From: Oscillospiraceae bacterium
GTDB taxonomy: Bacteria; Bacteroidota; Bacteroidia; Bacteroidales; Bacteroidaceae
DNA: 64,000 nucleotides
Direction of reading: 5' to 3'
Assembly: GCA_963588475.1 (NCBI GenBank)
Contig: CAVAHD010000003.1
Span: 66,704-130,703, forward strand
Part shown: piece by piece, positions 24 through 21,220 of the stretch
How positions within the stretch are numbered: the stretch's first letter is position 1
Layout of the letters: each line of letters opens with the position of its first letter
The notes under the pieces: model-generated
Told to the model about the DNA's origin: nothing
Databases searched by the model: none
What the model saw: only the letters and a program-made list of their open reading frames with translations
Position numbers and translations under genes: made by a program

Positions 24-893
24 TTATCTACCTTGCTTCCCATGCGCTTGTTGTAGTAAGAGATTAATACCCTTTCGGGCTTGTTTGGCTTCCGCTATCT
101 CCCGGATGGTTGCGTCCGTGACCTCTTTAGGCAGCTCGAAGTCAGCAGCCCGAGCTTCCGCCTTCTGTTTGTTAAGCTTGTTCGCTCCCATCGATGCCAG
201 CAGAGCCTCGTAGGCTCGCTTAGAGGACTCCGGTATCGGCACGGCAGTACGCGCCCATTCCTCACGTTCGCGCACCTCACGTTCATTCCTCATCTGCTGG
301 TGTACTTCTATCCGTCTTTGGTATAGCTCATCCAAGAAGTTCGAGAATGATGCCGTGACCACCTGCGGATTGGCGTGCTCGTAACCCATGAAGCGTTGGT
401 ACCGCCCTTGTCTGAACCGCGTGAAGAATACCATCAGTTCCGCCATCGTGACGTGCATGTTCATGTCCACGCACATACTGCGTAGTGTCTGTGCAAGTGC
501 CGTCTTTTGGCCCTCACTCACCTTGTCACGCAGCCCCACAAAGGAGAACACTTCTGTCAGTTGTATCTTAAGCCACACAACAGAAAGAGTCTGCCCATCG
601 TCCGACCAAACCCTATCCACTTCTTGCAATGACGGAGCGTTGGAGCGGATAGCCTTTTCCAAGGTAGGGTACAGGCGCTCCCGATTCCGCGTTGGGAAAT
701 GCTTGCATACATCCGGATAGAACCTGTCCCCGTACCTCTTGATTAGGCAGTCCACGCGTTGGCGGTCAGTCAACGCCAGCGAACAGATTGCGTCCCGACG
801 CTTCAAGATACTTGCGCTCTTGCTCATCTGTCTCAACTGCACGTCCGTTGTTTGTGGTGCAGCCGCTTGTAATTGCTTGTTGTCTTCTATCAT
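24..893 (-). CDS. hypothetical phage protein
   Basis: 289-aa ORF in line with the phage operon. No family recognised by eye. Start uncertain because it overlaps 766..1257 by 128 nt. Confidence 0.55.
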   Translation of the reverse strand: MIEDNKQLQAAAPQTTDVQLRQMSKSASILKRRDAICSLALTDRQRVDCLIKRYGDRFYPDVCKHFPTRNRERLYPTLEKAIRSNAPSLQEVDRVWSDDGQTLSVVWLKIQLTEVFSFVGLRDKVSEGQKTALAQTLRSMCVDMNMHVTMAELMVFFTRFRQGRYQRFMGYEHANPQVVTASFSNFLDELYQRRIEVHQQMRNEREVREREEWARTAVPIPESSKRAYEALLASMGANKLNKQKAEARAADFELPKEVTDATIREIAEAKQARKGINLLLQQAHGKQGR

Positions 894-8051: not shown

Positions 8052-8639
8052 TTATTTTTCGTCAATTGGTTTATAACTCCATTTATACCCGTAAGCAGTA
8101 TGTCTATACTTCCCGCCTCGGCAACATTTTGATATGTTTGCATACGAAACGTGTTGTTTTCTCGTTACGCTCATTAGTGAAGGCCATACCTTTATCAAAT
8201 TGCCTTCCAAATCATATTGATATACTTCCTTTTCACAACCATGAGAATTATTTTTATTTCGAGTATCTATTTTTGTTCTCATTGAATTGTTATAGGTTGT
8301 ATTATATGAATAAGTACACCACTCCAAATTGCCAACGTTGTTGTTCAATTTGTTTTCATCCTTGTGATTAACAACTGGATATTCATGAGGATTTGCAATA
8401 AATGTTTCAGCCACTAGTCTATGAATCCTTACCAATTTGATAAGTTCCCTGTTGCGCAGACAAACGAAAGCATATCCGTTAGGGTTCACACCTGCCTTTA
8501 ATGTCCTGCCTTTCAAGAAATAGGGGGCACTATTGCATCTCGGAATCATTCTATCAAGCGAGCGAACTTTTCCAAAATTACTTACTTGGTAAACCCCTTC
8601 AAATCCAGTAATATCTTGCCAGATTTCTTCTCTTGTCAT
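8052..8639 (-). CDS. HNH homing endonuclease (NUMOD4 + HNH_3 type)
   Basis: EIWQDITGFEGVYQVSNFGKVRSL (NUMOD4-like) followed by HRLVAETFIANP...VNHKDENKLNNNVGNLEW (HNH). The gene is visibly AT-rich relative to its neighbours. Confidence 0.85.
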   Translation of the reverse strand: MTREEIWQDITGFEGVYQVSNFGKVRSLDRMIPRCNSAPYFLKGRTLKAGVNPNGYAFVCLRNRELIKLVRIHRLVAETFIANPHEYPVVNHKDENKLNNNVGNLEWCTYSYNTTYNNSMRTKIDTRNKNNSHGCEKEVYQYDLEGNLIKVWPSLMSVTRKQHVSYANISKCCRGGKYRHTAYGYKWSYKPIDEK

Positions 8640-8699: not shown

Positions 8700-8903
8700 T
8701 TAAATCAAACCCATATCTACCAAGCGTTCTTCCAATGCCACAAAGTACGCTTCCATACCATACAATTGCTTATCCATCAACTTGTACTGACGGTATCCTA
8801 CTTTCTCACTGATTTCATCATCATTCAAAACATCGGCCAACTTAGACATACGCTCTTTTAGCTCATTGTACTCATCGAGCAATCTTTTCTGATAATCTTC
8901 CAT
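8700..8903 (-). CDS. hypothetical small helical phage protein
   Basis: 67-aa ORF, predicted to be all-helical. Confidence 0.55.
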   Translation of the reverse strand: MEDYQKRLLDEYNELKERMSKLADVLNDDEISEKVGYRQYKLMDKQLYGMEAYFVALEERLVDMGLI

Positions 8904-9093: not shown

Positions 9094-9378
9094 TTATTGT
9101 TGTTTCTCCAGCTTCTTAATGAGCTGCTTTATCTCGTTGTATACTATCTTGTCGTTGACCGCCATTGCGGCAATGTCGCTTAGCTCCTGGATGAGGTCTT
9201 TTGTGGTCATCATGCCGTGCACGCACTGGATAAACCAAGCTATTGTCGACGGCTTTAAATTACCCAATTCGCGAGCTTGTTGCCGCCCATTGTACACTAT
9301 TAGATGGTATCTCTTGTATGTGAGCAACCACCACAAGGCTTGCGCTTTGCCTCTAATGTTTCTTAGTTTCTGTTTCAT
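9094..9378 (-). CDS. hypothetical phage protein
   Basis: ORF 9094..9597 trimmed to MKQKLRNIRG.... The longer version would read through a tRNA-like element. Confidence 0.5.
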   Translation of the reverse strand: MKQKLRNIRGKAQALWWLLTYKRYHLIVYNGRQQARELGNLKPSTIAWFIQCVHGMMTTKDLIQELSDIAAMAVNDKIVYNEIKQLIKKLEKQQ

Positions 9379-9380
9379 TG

Positions 9381-9470
9381 TTAGTTGTTTTTTGCGTCCC
9401 GATACCCGCAGTAAGCCACGACGATGCAGACCACTACGCAGGACATTGTTAGTATTTCTATTCCAGTCAT
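9381..9470 (-). CDS. possible 29-aa hydrophobic peptide
   Basis: Hand translation gives MTGIEILTMSCVVVCIVVAYCGYRDAKNN. Its stop lies 2 nt upstream of the next start codon. Confidence 0.3.
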   Translation of the reverse strand: MTGIEILTMSCVVVCIVVAYCGYRDAKNN

Positions 9471-9490
9471 TTTTGTTTGGGTTTAAATAG

Positions 9491-9595
9491 TGGAGGCGGC
9501 AGGAGTCGAACCTGCTCAACAGAAGTAACACTAAATCTATCTCATAAACAATAATGGCTTGCTGACCTTTCCGAGAGCCAGCGAACTCCGCCTCC
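9491..9595 (-). ncRNA. tRNA-like element E1 (acceptor, D-like and T arms present, no canonical anticodon arm)
   Basis: Perfect 7-bp acceptor helix GGAGGCG/CGCCTCC. Perfect T arm GCAGG-TTCGACT-CCTGC. A 3-bp D stem has a GG-containing loop. It is 105 nt long, with a 6-bp helix TCAGCA/TGTTGA enclosing an AU-rich insert. Confidence 0.4.
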
Positions 9596-9667
9596 ATGTG
9601 ACCGCCCTATCTTCGCAGACCAGACGGCTAAATCATATGAGAAAAAGTAAATTTAAAAGACCCTAGG

Positions 9668-9785
9668 TGGGAATGCCGGGAGTCGAACCCACAGCGAAAT
9701 AGCGATTCACTGTATCATTTCACAATTTGAACTATTATTGCCGCACTTTGTATCCGGGCGTGCAGCGATTAAGCCTCGCATTCCC
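9668..9785 (-). ncRNA. tRNA-like element E2 (acceptor and T arm present, long non-canonical interior)
   Basis: 7-8 bp acceptor helix GGGAATG(C)/(G)CATTCCC. T loop GGGTTCGACTCCC with an imperfect stem. It is 118 nt long and contains an internal hairpin ATCGCTGCAC/GTGCGGCAAT. Confidence 0.3.
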
Positions 9786-9863
9786 AATTGTAAAACCCCA
9801 CTATACTCGCGTACCATGAGGTGCTTACTTTGTCTATGTAACTAAAACAACATTAGTATCTTC

Positions 9864-10151
9864 TTAGTAGCAAGCAGCCCTCGGCCGCCCTGTGTCGTTG
9901 CAGTGCTCGTCTACGTACTTCTTGCGCATCCGCGCCACGAAGTCCTTGGCTTGTTGCAGCGTCAGAACGTCGTTGCTCTGGTCTGCCTTATCCTCGACCG
10001 CGAAGGCTGGAATGCCGTGCAGCCAAACGTAGAGCTTGCCATCTTTGTCGTCTTGAATGTAGCAGAACTGGCGGCTCATCCACTCCGCTTCCTTGATGCG
10101 CTTAGTGCGGTTGTTCTCACTGATGCGCTTGATTATTCTCTTTATTCCCAT
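9864..10151 (-). CDS. hypothetical phage protein
   Basis: ORF 9864..10193 trimmed to MGIKRIIKR.... This start lies just downstream of the upstream stop at 10157. Confidence 0.55.
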   Translation of the reverse strand: MGIKRIIKRISENNRTKRIKEAEWMSRQFCYIQDDKDGKLYVWLHGIPAFAVEDKADQSNDVLTLQQAKDFVARMRKKYVDEHCNDTGRPRAACY

Positions 10152-10156
10152 AGTCG

Positions 10157-10399
10157 TTATGATTTTGCTTTGATTTCTTTGTTGATGTACCATACGGCCT
10201 TGTTGAGGTCTTGTATCTCCTTCTCCTTTGCCGTCAATCCCTCTTCGGTCTTGTGCCCGGCACGGAACAGGTATTTGAGTGCATTGCCGATATTGAAATT
10301 GAAGTGCTCGCAGATGTCGATGGCTTCAATGCCGCACTTCTCCTTTAGCCAAGTATAATGGCTCGGGTGGTTTACTGCATCGCTCTTTGTTTCGTTCAT
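10157..10399 (-). CDS. DUF3310-like phage protein
   Basis: HPSHYTW...IEAIDICEHFNFNIGNALKYLFRAGHK...DLNKAVWYI matches the DUF3310 pattern as I recall it. Trimmed to MNETKSD, next to the dUTPase stop. Confidence 0.65.
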   Translation of the reverse strand: MNETKSDAVNHPSHYTWLKEKCGIEAIDICEHFNFNIGNALKYLFRAGHKTEEGLTAKEKEIQDLNKAVWYINKEIKAKS

Positions 10400-11467: not shown

Positions 11468-11499
11468 TTCGTTTAACTTTTGTATGGGCACTTCCCGCC

Positions 11500-11925
11500 C
11501 CTTTGCCGCATATAGAGAGTTTAAGAAATCTCACCTATAAGAGACATGGGTTAGAAGAAAAGAGAGTCTTTATGATACCTACTGGAGAACCAGTCCTTTC
11601 TTTGTCTTCAAGAGCACTAATCATGGAGGTTGCCAACCTTTCTGTGTTCCTTCCTTTTCTCTTACCTTTCGGTATGCTGGCGCCTGTTGACGGGCGGTGG
11701 GTCAGAGCAGGACTTGGGGAAGTACCATTTTCGTACTGGAGCAGTTTTATATATCGGCAGGTAAACCGAAGAGGACTGCACGGATTTAACCTCTATGAGA
11801 AGCCCCCACCTCTGTGTGGTTTCTTTTAGGAACGAGAAATCTACAGGCACAGGTGGGGGCTTAGATATATATTATCATGTCTCTTATACTGCTCTCGATG
11901 TACCTCTAGAATCCTCGTTCCTTTG
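11500..11925 (-). ncRNA. candidate structured RNA or long structured leader (about 400 nt)
   Basis: No credible ORF. A 13-bp long-range pairing joins 11536-11548 to 11876-11888. A 10+3 bp hairpin joins 11802-11816 to 11848-11860. A 9-bp crossing helix joins 11828-11836 to 11914-11922, and several local hairpins are present. A TACCTTTG box lies just upstream on the minus strand. Confidence 0.35.
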
Positions 11926-11931
11926 TGGTTG

Positions 11932-11939
11932 CAAAGGTA
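11932..11939 (-). promoter_or_regulatory. Bacteroidetes -7 promoter box (TACCTTTG)
   Basis: Matches TAnnTTTG on the minus strand. It sits between a terminator at 12101-12133 and the structured region. Confidence 0.45.
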
Positions 11940-12100
11940 GTAAGAAAAACTTACCAAACAAATAAAAAGTTGCCTTTTCTTGCCATTATACTTGTAAATA
12001 CCGTAAAAGGGAACAAAAAAGCGAAATAAAGAACACTAAACAAAGTAATAAAAACTTACTTTAAACTTAACTTTGCGTATCTTGATGGAATCCCAGATAC

Positions 12101-12133
12101 AAAAAAAGGACACGCCATGTTGTCTGCGTGTCC
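12101..12133 (-). terminator. rho-independent terminator
   Basis: On the minus strand, GGACACGC-N10-GCGTGTCC is followed by T7. It lies 40 nt after the stop of 12175..12519. Confidence 0.65.
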
Positions 12134-12174
12134 CTTCGGGAATGCCGGAACGTCCGGCTTTATGGAGAACGGAT

Positions 12175-13917: not shown

Positions 13918-14028
13918 TTATCGCCCCAAGTTGTAAAGGGCGTTTTTGGCAAATGCAGGGCAGCGCATACAGTCGCAGCCGCAGTCGGGGTTGTTGGCGC
14001 AAAATGCCTCCAGTTCAAGGTCTCCCAT
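13918..14028 (-). CDS. possible 36-aa Cys-rich peptide
   Basis: Hand translation gives MGDLELEAFCANNPDCGCDCMRCPAFAKNALYNLGR. Confidence 0.3.
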   Translation of the reverse strand: MGDLELEAFCANNPDCGCDCMRCPAFAKNALYNLGR

Positions 14029-21117: not shown

Positions 21118-21148
21118 CTAACAATAAATGCGTTGCAAAATGTGGTTT

Positions 21149-21208
21149 GCGCCTGGAAAGCGTGTATACGTCAAAAGCGTATCGGGGGTTCGAATCCCCC
21201 TCTCTCCG
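21149..21208 (+). tRNA. 3' fragment of tRNA-Ser(GGA) (anticodon arm to 3' end), attR copy
   Basis: Present are the anticodon loop CTGGAAA, a long variable arm TATACG-TCAAAA-GCGTAT, the T arm GGGGG-TTCGAAT-CCCCC and the acceptor 3' strand TCTCTCC. No GGAGAGA 5' strand or D arm occurs upstream. Confidence 0.75.
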
Positions 21209-21220
21209 CTTTACTAGCAA

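Follow-up and report, generated by a model that had tools for sequence, protein, structure and literature searches.

Tandem tRNA-like elements without an anticodon arm in a Bacteroidales prophage, and a hairpin-led family of related phage cassettes

Phage transfer RNA (tRNA) genes are usually read as helpers of codon usage or as spares against defences that cut tRNAs. Some phage RNAs have tRNA-like ends: the T4 species 1 and species 2 RNAs (rnaC and rnaD), stable molecules of ~120–140 nt, are encoded in the T4 tRNA cluster. In jakobid mitochondria, a transfer-messenger RNA (tmRNA) lacking the mRNA-like domain persists as a relic consisting of the tRNA-like domain (TLD) only. To our knowledge, neither the T4 RNAs nor the jakobid tmRNA has a conserved leader hairpin. 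Here we analyse two tandem elements, E1 and E2, on the minus strand of a 64,000-nt stretch of contig CAVAHD010000003.1 (assembly GCA_963588475.1, positions 66,704–130,703; hereafter the window). Each has the acceptor helix and T arm of a tRNA, lacks an anticodon arm and follows a conserved hairpin.

Mycobacteriophage DS6A encodes a 'TLD only' tmRNA-like RNA; according to the tmRNA Website authors, RNAs of this type inhibit tmRNA whether or not they can be charged, perhaps through titration of SmpB (PMC4131195). Like the DS6A molecule, E1 and E2 are phage-encoded, combine an acceptor helix and T arm without a decoding or tag part, and have the tmRNA TLD as their top Rfam match. Unlike it, the two being compared by description only, they enclose hairpin-bearing interiors of 70–80 nt, have no G3·U70 pair, follow a leader hairpin, stand in tandem and occur in Bacteroidales phages. 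A BLAST search against phages, seeking DS6A with the TLD of a mini-tmRNA from viral contig L001 (described below), gave generic T-arm matches only. Compared with tmRNA itself (RF00023), the acceptor and T arm are near consensus, the E1 3' end reads GAGCAGGUUCGACUCCUGCCGCCUCCA and E2 has a D-loop-like GAGGCUU, but both elements lack the mRNA-like domain, the pseudoknots and G3·U70.

Phage tRNAs can serve as counter-defence, as T6 tRNA-Tyr does against Septu, by replacing or outnumbering host tRNAs cut by defence systems (PMC13096335). E1 and E2 resemble canonical phage tRNAs in the type of array, in their A-C-N-N trailers, in having an HNH homing endonuclease close by and, for many relatives, in class II-like D arms; unlike them, they have no anticodon arm and would provide no translational replacement, acting as decoys at most. 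YrlA, which is also found in phages, is noncoding, contains a tRNA-like module made of acceptor-like, T and D arms, and acts by protein binding (PMC4201824). In YrlA, however, the tRNA-like module is internal and the ends form the Ro60-binding helix, whereas the ends of E1 and E2 form the acceptor helix; a Y RNA match to either element was absent from Rfam at E ≤ 10. The IMG/VR catalogue of Fremin et al. (2023) contains 'tRNA or tRNA-like' candidate RNAs from phage metagenomes, some partly overlapping ARAGORN calls (PMC10690425). It differs from the present account in giving no cassette description, hairpin or functional reading. By analogy, E1 and E2 would work most like the TLD-only or tRNA-mimic RNAs, that is, the DS6A molecule, YrlA modules and the T4 species 1 and 2 RNAs.

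Two tRNA-like elements that cannot decode codons

Both elements lie in a noncoding gap of 393 nt (9471–9863), which the original prediction, made from the letters of the window, had recognized and put at 390 nt. On the minus strand, the gap is flanked by a 109-amino-acid (aa) open reading frame (ORF; 9864–10193) and by a 29-aa ORF starting at 9470, the ATG of this next ORF following the end of E1 by 21 nt. As that prediction had described, each element has a 7-bp acceptor helix stacked straight on a T arm with the loop TTCGACT; the 5-bp stem and 7-nt loop (TTCRANN) are those of a canonical tRNA (Table 1). The T stem of E1 is perfect, while that of E2 contains one G·G mismatch at the outer pair. 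The GG-bearing D-like arm proposed for E1 is a covarying hairpin of 9–10 bp with GG within a 10-nt loop, whereas the D region of E2 is an unpaired GAGGCUUAAUC segment that resembles the tmRNA D loop in the Rfam alignment. The window contains three copies of the T-loop word GGTTCGANTCC, where 0.16 would be expected: those of E1 and E2 and one in a tRNA-Ser fragment at ~21.19 kb. A scan for a fully paired (7/7) acceptor with a T arm recovered both elements; shuffled sequence of all loci gave 1–6 matches per 854 kb.

Neither element has an anticodon arm with a 5-bp stem and a 7-nt loop carrying U33 and a purine at position 37. ARAGORN reported no tRNA or tmRNA genes in the whole window and, with its intron option at default thresholds, nothing in the E1/E2 region, consistent with the lack of an anticodon arm. 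At 70% thresholds it returned only forced, mutually inconsistent tRNA models, and at lowered thresholds a spurious 442-nt 'tmRNA' spanning both elements. Rfam 15 gave no match anywhere in the window at gathering scores, which are 29 bits for tRNA (RF00005) and 47 bits for tmRNA (RF00023). In E-value mode, the best match of each element was the tmRNA TLD, at 20.9 bits for E1 (E = 1.7e-6, 600 nt) and 10.9 bits for E2 (E = 0.029). What aligns is the acceptor and T arm with a few bases of the D loop; 69–77 nt replace ~325 model positions. Both scans, which had been proposed as checks, agree with the earlier failure to find a canonical 7-nt anticodon loop by hand.

E1 and E2 contain the parts that define a tmRNA TLD, namely an acceptor helix and T arm with a D loop lacking a stem. 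The alanine identity pair G3·U70 is absent (A3-U70 in E1, G3-C70 in E2 and A3-U70 in the E2 of orthologous contig L157), as are pseudoknots and an mRNA-like domain carrying a resume codon and a tag frame that closes with a degron. A mini-tmRNA with its own tag was considered and rejected: the sole frame in E1, GCA AGC CAU UAU UGU UUA UGA (ASHYCL-stop), has no degron and is shortened to ASH-stop in L158. E1 and E2 fail the defining tests of tRNA, tmRNA and intron-containing tRNA, and they cannot decode codons.

Orthologues were obtained from six short contigs in public read assemblies, found through proteins flanking the gap: L083 and L084 through the 109-aa ORF, and L157–L160 through a 94-aa ORF (9094–9378). 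The resulting alignments are small (four or five sequences) and hold close relatives. Across the five E1 sequences, the acceptor strands are 100% identical and the T arm 98%, and all 31 modelled pairs of the leader hairpin, acceptor, D-like hairpin and T arm are kept in 5/5 sequences. Changes on both sides of a pair occur at three positions of the D-like hairpin (GCTGGC/GTCAGC becoming GCCAGT/GCTGGC or GCTGAC/GTCAGC) and at one position of the leader hairpin. When the pairing model was slid along the alignment as a control, the paired fraction fell to 29–59%. RNAalifold, run blind on the E1 orthologues, recovered the same helices together with a weak GAUAGA/UCUGUU hairpin beside the T arm. The 6-bp helix TCAGCA/TGTTGA, earlier drawn where the anticodon arm should be, has its bases in the sequence, but we reject it as a structure: it competes with the covarying D-like hairpin and is lost in L158 and L160.

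For E2, the alignment holds four sequences, with orthologues in L083, L157, L158 and L160. The first 47 nt (acceptor strand, GAGGCUUAAUC and a 7-bp hairpin with loop GCCCGGAUACAAA) and the T arm and acceptor are 82–93% identical, while the 46-nt linker is 35–45% identical. In L157 the acceptor reads GGAAATG/CATTTCC, a compensatory change from G3:C70 to A3:U70. The spacer between E2 and E1 has a mean pairwise identity of 56% among orthologues. The E2 copy of L158 (141–260) departs from this pattern: its T loop is one base short (GGGTTCACTCCC), its leader hairpin is missing and its upstream gene is a different one, and the adjoining E1 is intact. This copy reflects either decay in that lineage or an assembly error.

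Because the frame is conserved while linkers and spacers drift, the frame of E1 and E2 is under purifying selection, a conclusion drawn from the alignments. One part of the condition set for refuting the original prediction was a lack, in related phages, of conserved acceptor and T helices and of compensatory changes; instead, orthologues in four related prophage contigs keep both helices, and compensatory changes occur in the D-like hairpin of E1 and at acceptor pair 3:70 of E2. Against this background, we considered decaying pseudogenes, in which E1 and E2 would be drifting relics of class II (Tyr/Leu/Ser-like) phage tRNA genes minus the anticodon arm. Arrays of this kind also hold canonical phage tRNAs, and the G·G mismatch in the E2 T stem, the damaged and hairpin-less E2 of L158 and the fast-evolving interiors all fit decay. 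However, acceptor and T arms remain 92–100% identical against 34–56% for adjacent spacers, helices are maintained by compensatory changes and, in the wider family, interior helices covary within classes. We regard decay as improbable. Disrupted tRNAs, as earlier suggested, hold as a description of ancestry, given the shared type of array, but are unlikely as the present state, given a frame under purifying selection, the decayed-looking L158 E2 apart.

A hairpin-led cassette family in Bacteroidales phages

Each element is preceded, at a distance of 6–10 nt, by a conserved 26-nt hairpin with a GNRA tetraloop (H1 before E1, H2 before E2) that had gone unnoticed. The hairpin runs from a variable lower stem of 5–6 bp through GGUNN, a GNGA tetraloop and NNAUA to the returning strand of the stem; the conserved upper stem in H2 is made of G·A, G·U and U-A. 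The loop pattern has two copies only in the window, H1 and H2, against 0.03 expected. Lower stems differ among copies and loci yet stay complementary, covarying across 23 cassettes. The two pairs beneath the tetraloop also covary (UC/GA, CU/AG, AC/GU, AU/AU, CC/GG and GC/GC), all four nucleotides are observed at the N of the GNGA loop, and the closing U-A pair of H1 becomes C-G in L158 and L159. The invariant G·U and frequent U·G pairs are compatible with the sense strand only.

An RNA hairpin is favoured because the outer arms vary yet stay complementary and the G·U pairs fit the sense strand only; this points to action as RNA rather than as a double-stranded DNA site. On the same two features, a double-stranded DNA operator or a T7-like promoter was rejected as a reading. 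An intrinsic terminator was also rejected, as a T run follows only ~60% of the hairpin copies and none follows that of E1. Likeness to the sarcin-ricin loop or to a Y RNA stem was confined to single variants, and the hairpin has no match in Rfam 15.

The hairpin is not confined to tRNA-like bodies. It occurs occasionally before protein genes, 36–62 nt upstream of start codons, in L084 (2138), L096 (13294) and L140 (687). In L003 (4112–4290), two copies are followed by short GC-rich hairpins, GGGGTGGA...TCCACCTC and GGGGAGCGGGAG...CTTCTCCCTGAC, and no tRNA-like bodies; the leader hairpin therefore marks other small RNAs too. These occurrences bear on a bipartite RNA, in which the hairpin would be retained as a protein-binding handle or docked on the body, and the scaffold would display a variable insert with a regulatory or anti-defence role unrelated to tRNA enzymes. 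The tight coupling of the hairpin to non-canonical bodies, together with its rarity before canonical tRNAs (2 of 25 distinct genes in the same loci), agrees with such a molecule, as do interiors that are hypervariable among close relatives and a GNGA loop with any N on a conserved upper stem, which is typical of a specific RNA–protein or RNA–RNA contact. The copies before protein genes and before the plain L003 hairpins argue the other way, as do a spacing between hairpin and body that varies from 5 to 37 nt across the family and the lack of an enriched candidate binding protein nearby. A bipartite RNA is, in our judgement, quite unlikely.

E1 and E2 belong to a wider family of such cassettes in Bacteroidales phages. 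We define the cassette as a hairpin N5-6/GGUNN-GNGA-NNAUA/N5-6, an interval of ~5–37 nt, a body closed by a 7-bp acceptor and a T arm, and an A-C trailer. IMG/VR was scanned for the hairpin loop followed, after 85–115 nt, by GGTTCGA, with no demand for base pairing, and 55 contigs matched. A perfect 5-bp lower stem was present in 40, a perfect T stem in 44 and a 7/7 acceptor in 35, with all three features in 31 of the 55, where the chance per match is 0.00025. Besides these 31, the definition covers both window elements, the L157 and L160 orthologues and an element of the cultured phage BS-TP2. An alignment of 23 distinct cassettes has pairing in 98.6% of its cells and two-sided changes at 17 of 22 pairs; this set was selected by pairing and aligned over helices only, and the unbiased test is the count among the 55 matches. 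The scans of collections returned exact pattern matches only, so that the family is larger and more varied than sampled here.

Bodies range from 58 to ~185 nt, and most go unseen by ARAGORN. Acceptors beginning GGAG, with A73 and a class II D arm, are found in many relatives. Non-canonical bodies are usual behind the hairpin (~36 distinct), a rule that again speaks against pseudogenes. Several pass the Rfam tRNA threshold with 13–41 nt replacing the 7-nt anticodon loop (L008, L009-B, L147 and a common 97-nt class with a tRNA-Leu-type D arm); L008 and L009-B reach 39–57 bits. Others place a tetraloop hairpin at the anticodon position (L111-67 and L109-75), and L009-A matches the tmRNA TLD best in Rfam, at 32 bits. 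Within related classes, loops at the anticodon position measure 4–19 nt while stems covary, and in the TGAGAGA class (L086, L098 and L104) the interior stems covary and loop lengths change.

These bodies also inform the proposal that E1 and E2 are intron-containing tRNAs. L009-B and L008-104, which pass the tRNA threshold of Rfam with ~40 nt replacing the anticodon loop, speak for it. E1 and E2, however, have no anticodon stem left to interrupt, the ARAGORN intron option was empty and the interiors differ by insertions and deletions as well as substitutions. Replacements of 12–40 nt are far below the size of a group I intron (core of at least 200 nt), the 11–19-nt loops of L008-80 and the 97-nt class cannot be introns, and neither the RNA ligase nor the splicing endonuclease that a bulge-helix-bulge intron calls for is among the recurrent neighbours. 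Taken together with attachment (att) sites, which are treated with the prophage below, this explanation is largely refuted and highly improbable.

Links to the window elements run through individual relatives. The L009 pair A/B lies downstream of a dUTPase, as E2/E1 do in the window, and L009-A has AGGCUU..UAAUCG in common with E2. An AU-rich motif, UUUUGAG(AU.G)UUUA(GUGUU)ACUUCU, is common to the E1 interior (9516–9556, minus strand), L139 (~200–243) and L009 (6455–6500, in L009-B), whose shared core reads UUUUGAG..UUUA..CUUCU. The motif has no predicted stable structure, and the elements that share it have different acceptor stems, which nevertheless stay complementary. A search of IMG/VR for the E1-interior motif recovered only L139, the window showed no target complementary to it, and antisense targets of E1 and E2 in the window amounted to three 11-mers, about the chance number.

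Tandem pairs and arrays of three to four cassettes occur. The trailer is conserved as A-C-N-N, CCA is mostly not encoded, and U is usual at position −1 of the bodies. The cultured Bacteroides phage BS-TP2 (PQ571275.1; L171) has two unannotated tRNA-like elements, at 2561–2747 and 2985–3113 of L171 (in PQ571275.1, ~13.68–13.81 kb and ~13.26–13.45 kb). One combines the hairpin GGTGTGC-CGTCCGTGAGGATA-GTGCACC with an 83-nt body into a cassette; the other candidate, of ~185 nt, has the closure TAAAAGG/CTTTTTA, the T arm GTAGG-TTCGACT-CCTAC and a large AT-rich interior. The isolate Prevotella sp. oral taxon 376 F0043 carries a prophage with a further cassette, whose leader hairpin is different.

A GC-rich viral contig, L001 (IMGVR_UViG_3300047359_001566), encodes a 65-nt TLD-only mini-tmRNA (263–331, minus strand) that scores 42 bits against the gathering score of 47. 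It consists of GGGGGCG...CGCCUCC (with G3·U70), a D loop of tmRNA type (GGGUGAUCGAC), a P2 stub of 5 bp, GAC and a T arm. Its last 25 nt, comprising the T arm and the 3' acceptor strand, are identical to those of E1, and an exact search of IMG/VR for this 3'-end pattern found L001 only.

The surroundings of the family vary. Among 80 viral and 17 genomic loci compared by dUTPase synteny, few neighbours were shared with the window, and tRNA-like elements appeared only in L009, L008, L003, L147 and L154. No enrichment of RNA-related proteins was seen beside the cassettes, where the recurrent genes encode Erf, a PD-(D/E)XK nuclease, an integrase, DUF3127 and a CI-like repressor. On one cassette-bearing viral contig, L086, a c4-2 antisense RNA (RF02944, 60 bits, above threshold) lies at 13941–14023 on the plus strand. 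No description of the cassette was found in the literature searched, and this family of a hairpin with a non-canonical tRNA-like RNA in Bacteroidales phages is apparently undescribed.

The host prophage and its accessory region

Positions 1 to ~21,140 of the window belong to a temperate phage, with genes for a Sak annealing protein, a PD-(D/E)XK nuclease, a methylase, an Ant/Bro protein, a dUTPase, DUF3310, a crAss001_48-like protein and an HNH endonuclease. Chromosomal genes begin at ~21.2 kb and include those for signal peptidase, alpha-2-macroglobulin, IspH, a sigma-54 activator, CstA, RsmF, GH2/GH53 and topoisomerase. GenBank phage nucleotide searches with the gap region and with 25 kb of the window gave no match, and from its sequence the prophage appears to be without a close cultured relative. 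Relatives of its dUTPase in genomes are mostly from Bacteroidales (Bacteroidaceae, Alistipes, Prevotella and Segatella).

Between the two parts lies the 3' portion of a tRNA-Ser(GGA), uncalled by ARAGORN, whose 5' acceptor strand is missing and which is followed by a strong terminator hairpin. This fragment is most likely the junction of prophage and host, an att remnant. Integrases often target the stretch from the T arm to the 3' end of tRNA or tmRNA genes, and the original prediction had listed recombination targets among its options for E1 and E2. That option falls: both elements lie 11.5 kb inside the prophage with both acceptor strands present, and they are not an att site because the junction is at the tRNA-Ser fragment, at ~21.14 kb. 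The covarying, compensatory changes in the two acceptor strands also point to an RNA helix and not a DNA site.

The sequence immediately upstream of E1 and of E2 matches neither a sigma70-type promoter nor, exactly, the −7 motif of Bacteroidetes (TAnnTTTG). The nearest −7 motifs on the minus strand are at 10024–10031, inside the 109-aa ORF, and at 11932–11939, in a noncoding stretch of the prophage operon. This stretch, which also contains a long perfect hairpin, may serve as promoter and structured leader for the transcript carrying E2 and E1.

The region around the elements (8–10 kb) has a GC content of 0.42; the contrast with ~0.50 in its surroundings suggests a mosaic accessory module. HNH homing endonucleases, of which one is encoded downstream of E1, are often linked to phage tRNA loci (PMC13096335). 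Distant homologues of the 94-aa ORF (44–48% identity), in L161/L162 (2136–2714) and L164–L170 (1–498), have Tad2-like (anti-Thoeris), MBL-fold or faintly Apyc1-like genes nearby, a neighbourhood that hints at an anti-defence region; these contigs contain no tRNA-like elements.

Table 1. Positions of E1, E2, their parts and other features of the prophage (numbering of the window)
Feature	Position	Strand	Description
H2	9821->9796	minus	hairpin upstream of E2: CCTCA-T-GGTAC-[GCGA]-GTATA-G-TGGGG
Leader of E2	9786–9795	minus	TTTTACAATT, single-stranded, H2 to E2 5' end; presumed RNase P leader, U at −1 inferred
E2	9785->9668	minus	118-nt tRNA-like RNA: GGGAATG...GTGGG-TTCGACT-CCCGG-CATTCCC-A
E2 acceptor 5' strand	9779–9785	minus	
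E2 D-loop-like segment	9767–9778	minus	CGAGGCTTAATC
E2 conserved hairpin	9740–9766	minus	7 bp, 13-nt loop GCCCGGATACAAA
E2 linker	9693–9739	minus	AU-rich, fast-evolving
E2 T arm	9676–9692	minus	
E2 acceptor 3' strand	9669–9675	minus	
E2 discriminator	9668	minus	A
Spacer between E2 and H1	9628–9667	minus	poorly conserved
H1	9627->9602	minus	hairpin upstream of E1: CCGTC-T-GGTCT-[GCGA]-AGATA-G-GGCGG
Leader of E1	9596–9601	minus	TCACAT, H1 to E1 5' end
E1	9595->9491	minus	105-nt tRNA-like RNA: GGAGGCG...GCAGG-TTCGACT-CCTGC-CGCCTCC-A
E1 acceptor 5' strand	9589–9595	minus	
E1 D-like hairpin	9557–9586	minus	long, GG in loop
E1 AU-rich region	9516–9556	minus	includes weak hairpin GAUAGA/UCUGUU
E1 T arm	9499–9515	minus	
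E1 acceptor 3' strand	9492–9498	minus	
E1 discriminator	9491	minus	A
crAss001_48-family protein (PF21825)	8700–8903	minus	67 aa, downstream of E1
HNH homing endonuclease	8052–8639	minus	~850 nt downstream of E1
Noncoding stretch in prophage operon	11492–12174	minus	~680 nt; −7 motif TACCTTTG at 11932–11939
Long perfect hairpin	~11801–11861	minus	GCCCCCACCUGUG...CACAGAGGUGGGGGC, within 11492–12174; only meaningless miRNA-like Rfam matches
tRNA-Ser(GGA) fragment	~21,140–21,215	plus	3' ~70 nt: D loop onward, long variable arm, T arm GGGGG-TTCGAAT-CCCCC, acceptor 3' strand TCTCTCC

Possible roles of the elements

A range of factors read the top half of a tRNA without its anticodon: RNase P and RNase Z, the CCA-adding enzyme, T-loop modifiers, EF-Tu, some synthetases, SmpB and some tRNA-directed toxins. 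E1 and E2 are probably functional RNAs. Among the options first raised for them, tRNA mimics are the best supported, given a top half and a putatively elbow-forming D-like region conserved with compensatory changes and an anticodon place that is fast-evolving or class-specific. We favour, as a serious but still tentative reading of the sequence evidence, that they are stable, non-decoding mimics of the tRNA/tmRNA top half, matured by tRNA enzymes and acting as decoys.

E1 and E2 would derive from tRNA-type or tmRNA-type scaffolds. The retained part would be the recognition unit that does not depend on the anticodon, an acceptor helix stacked on the T arm with a GG-containing D-like elbow region, and the anticodon arm would have been lost or replaced. 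The cassette, ordered as GNRA-capped leader hairpin, single-stranded leader of 6–10 nt and tRNA-like body, would be transcribed on the minus strand with the early or accessory operon of the prophage. RNase P would cut at the 5' end of the acceptor helix, and RNase Z or exonucleases together with the CCA-adding enzyme would finish the 3' end. The predicted product is a stable, tRNA-shaped RNA of ~105–120 nt that pairs with no codon and may decoy or titrate some host factor reading the tRNA top half or elbow. Candidate targets are SmpB, and hence trans-translation, and a tRNA-directed immune nuclease or modifier. We propose the decoy or titrator role because of the DS6A TLD-only precedent and the 25-nt identity of E1 to the L001 TLD-only element; the accessory location, the anti-defence neighbours and the nearby HNH gene mildly favour it. 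A function of decoy type is itself possible though somewhat doubtful, and each single target is less probable than the type.

Several observations weigh against decoys. Neither element has G3·U70, and their tmRNA scores lie far under the gathering score. Some bodies in the family are tRNA-Leu/Tyr-like and not tmRNA-like, and a common target such as SmpB is not obvious. No protein partner is enriched next to the cassettes, where Erf, the PD-(D/E)XK nuclease and integrase recur. The more distant relatives of the downstream 94-aa gene carry no tRNA-like elements, and E2 may be dispensable, given its degenerate copy in L158. A decoy role also leaves the presence of the leader hairpin unexplained.

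The strongest rival is processing punctuation, which can be likened to mitochondrial tRNA punctuation and to MALAT1/mascRNA. Here the bodies would be RNase P/RNase Z cleavage signals that cut a polycistronic early transcript, so that the upstream mRNA ends after a protective hairpin and downstream genes receive a short A-rich 5' leader. The conserved part is only what RNase P and RNase Z recognize, and an RNase P cut would leave the conserved hairpin near the 3' end of the upstream fragment. The short distance from E1 to the next ATG also fits, as does the placement of the last elements elsewhere at 3–35 nt before a start codon (closest L009-B, 3 nt); a promoter motif of their own directly upstream of E2 or E1 was not found. 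However, tandem pairs and arrays of three to four cassettes exceed what punctuation needs, a purely protective hairpin would need no conserved sequence, and several cassettes have their own upstream Bacteroidetes-type −7 motifs. Class-specific conserved interior arms, such as the arm with the AAUA/AAUA internal loop in the TGAGAGA class, further suggest that the body matters. We consider punctuation unlikely.

Returning to decoys, we also put forward, as a more speculative and rather doubtful generalization, an unrecognized class of small-RNA cassettes in temperate Bacteroidales phages. A conserved GNRA leader hairpin would be joined to an anticodon-less scaffold with a swapped or fast-evolving interior, yielding host-processed, diversifiable decoys or inhibitors of top-half readers, with SmpB and trans-translation, immune effectors that cleave or modify tRNAs, and enzymes acting on the T loop or CCA end as candidates. 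The hairpin would then be a dedicated expression or processing signal for a further factor.

The locus thus exemplifies RNAs in which the decoding half of a tRNA has been discarded while the top half stays under selection, in many phages of Bacteroidales, a dominant order of the human gut. Standard annotation tools do not report these elements, and they are unannotated even in the cultured BS-TP2. The leader hairpin, a conserved RNA motif absent from Rfam 15, provides a marker of the cassettes, and the system is directly testable in B. salyersiae BG8 with BS-TP2 and in Prevotella sp. oral taxon 376 F0043. Should the elements be processing signals, they would be a case of tRNA punctuation in a bacteriophage. 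Should they be decoys, they would counter trans-translation or tRNA-directed immunity by means of RNA and would reveal what the host machinery recognizes in a tRNA.

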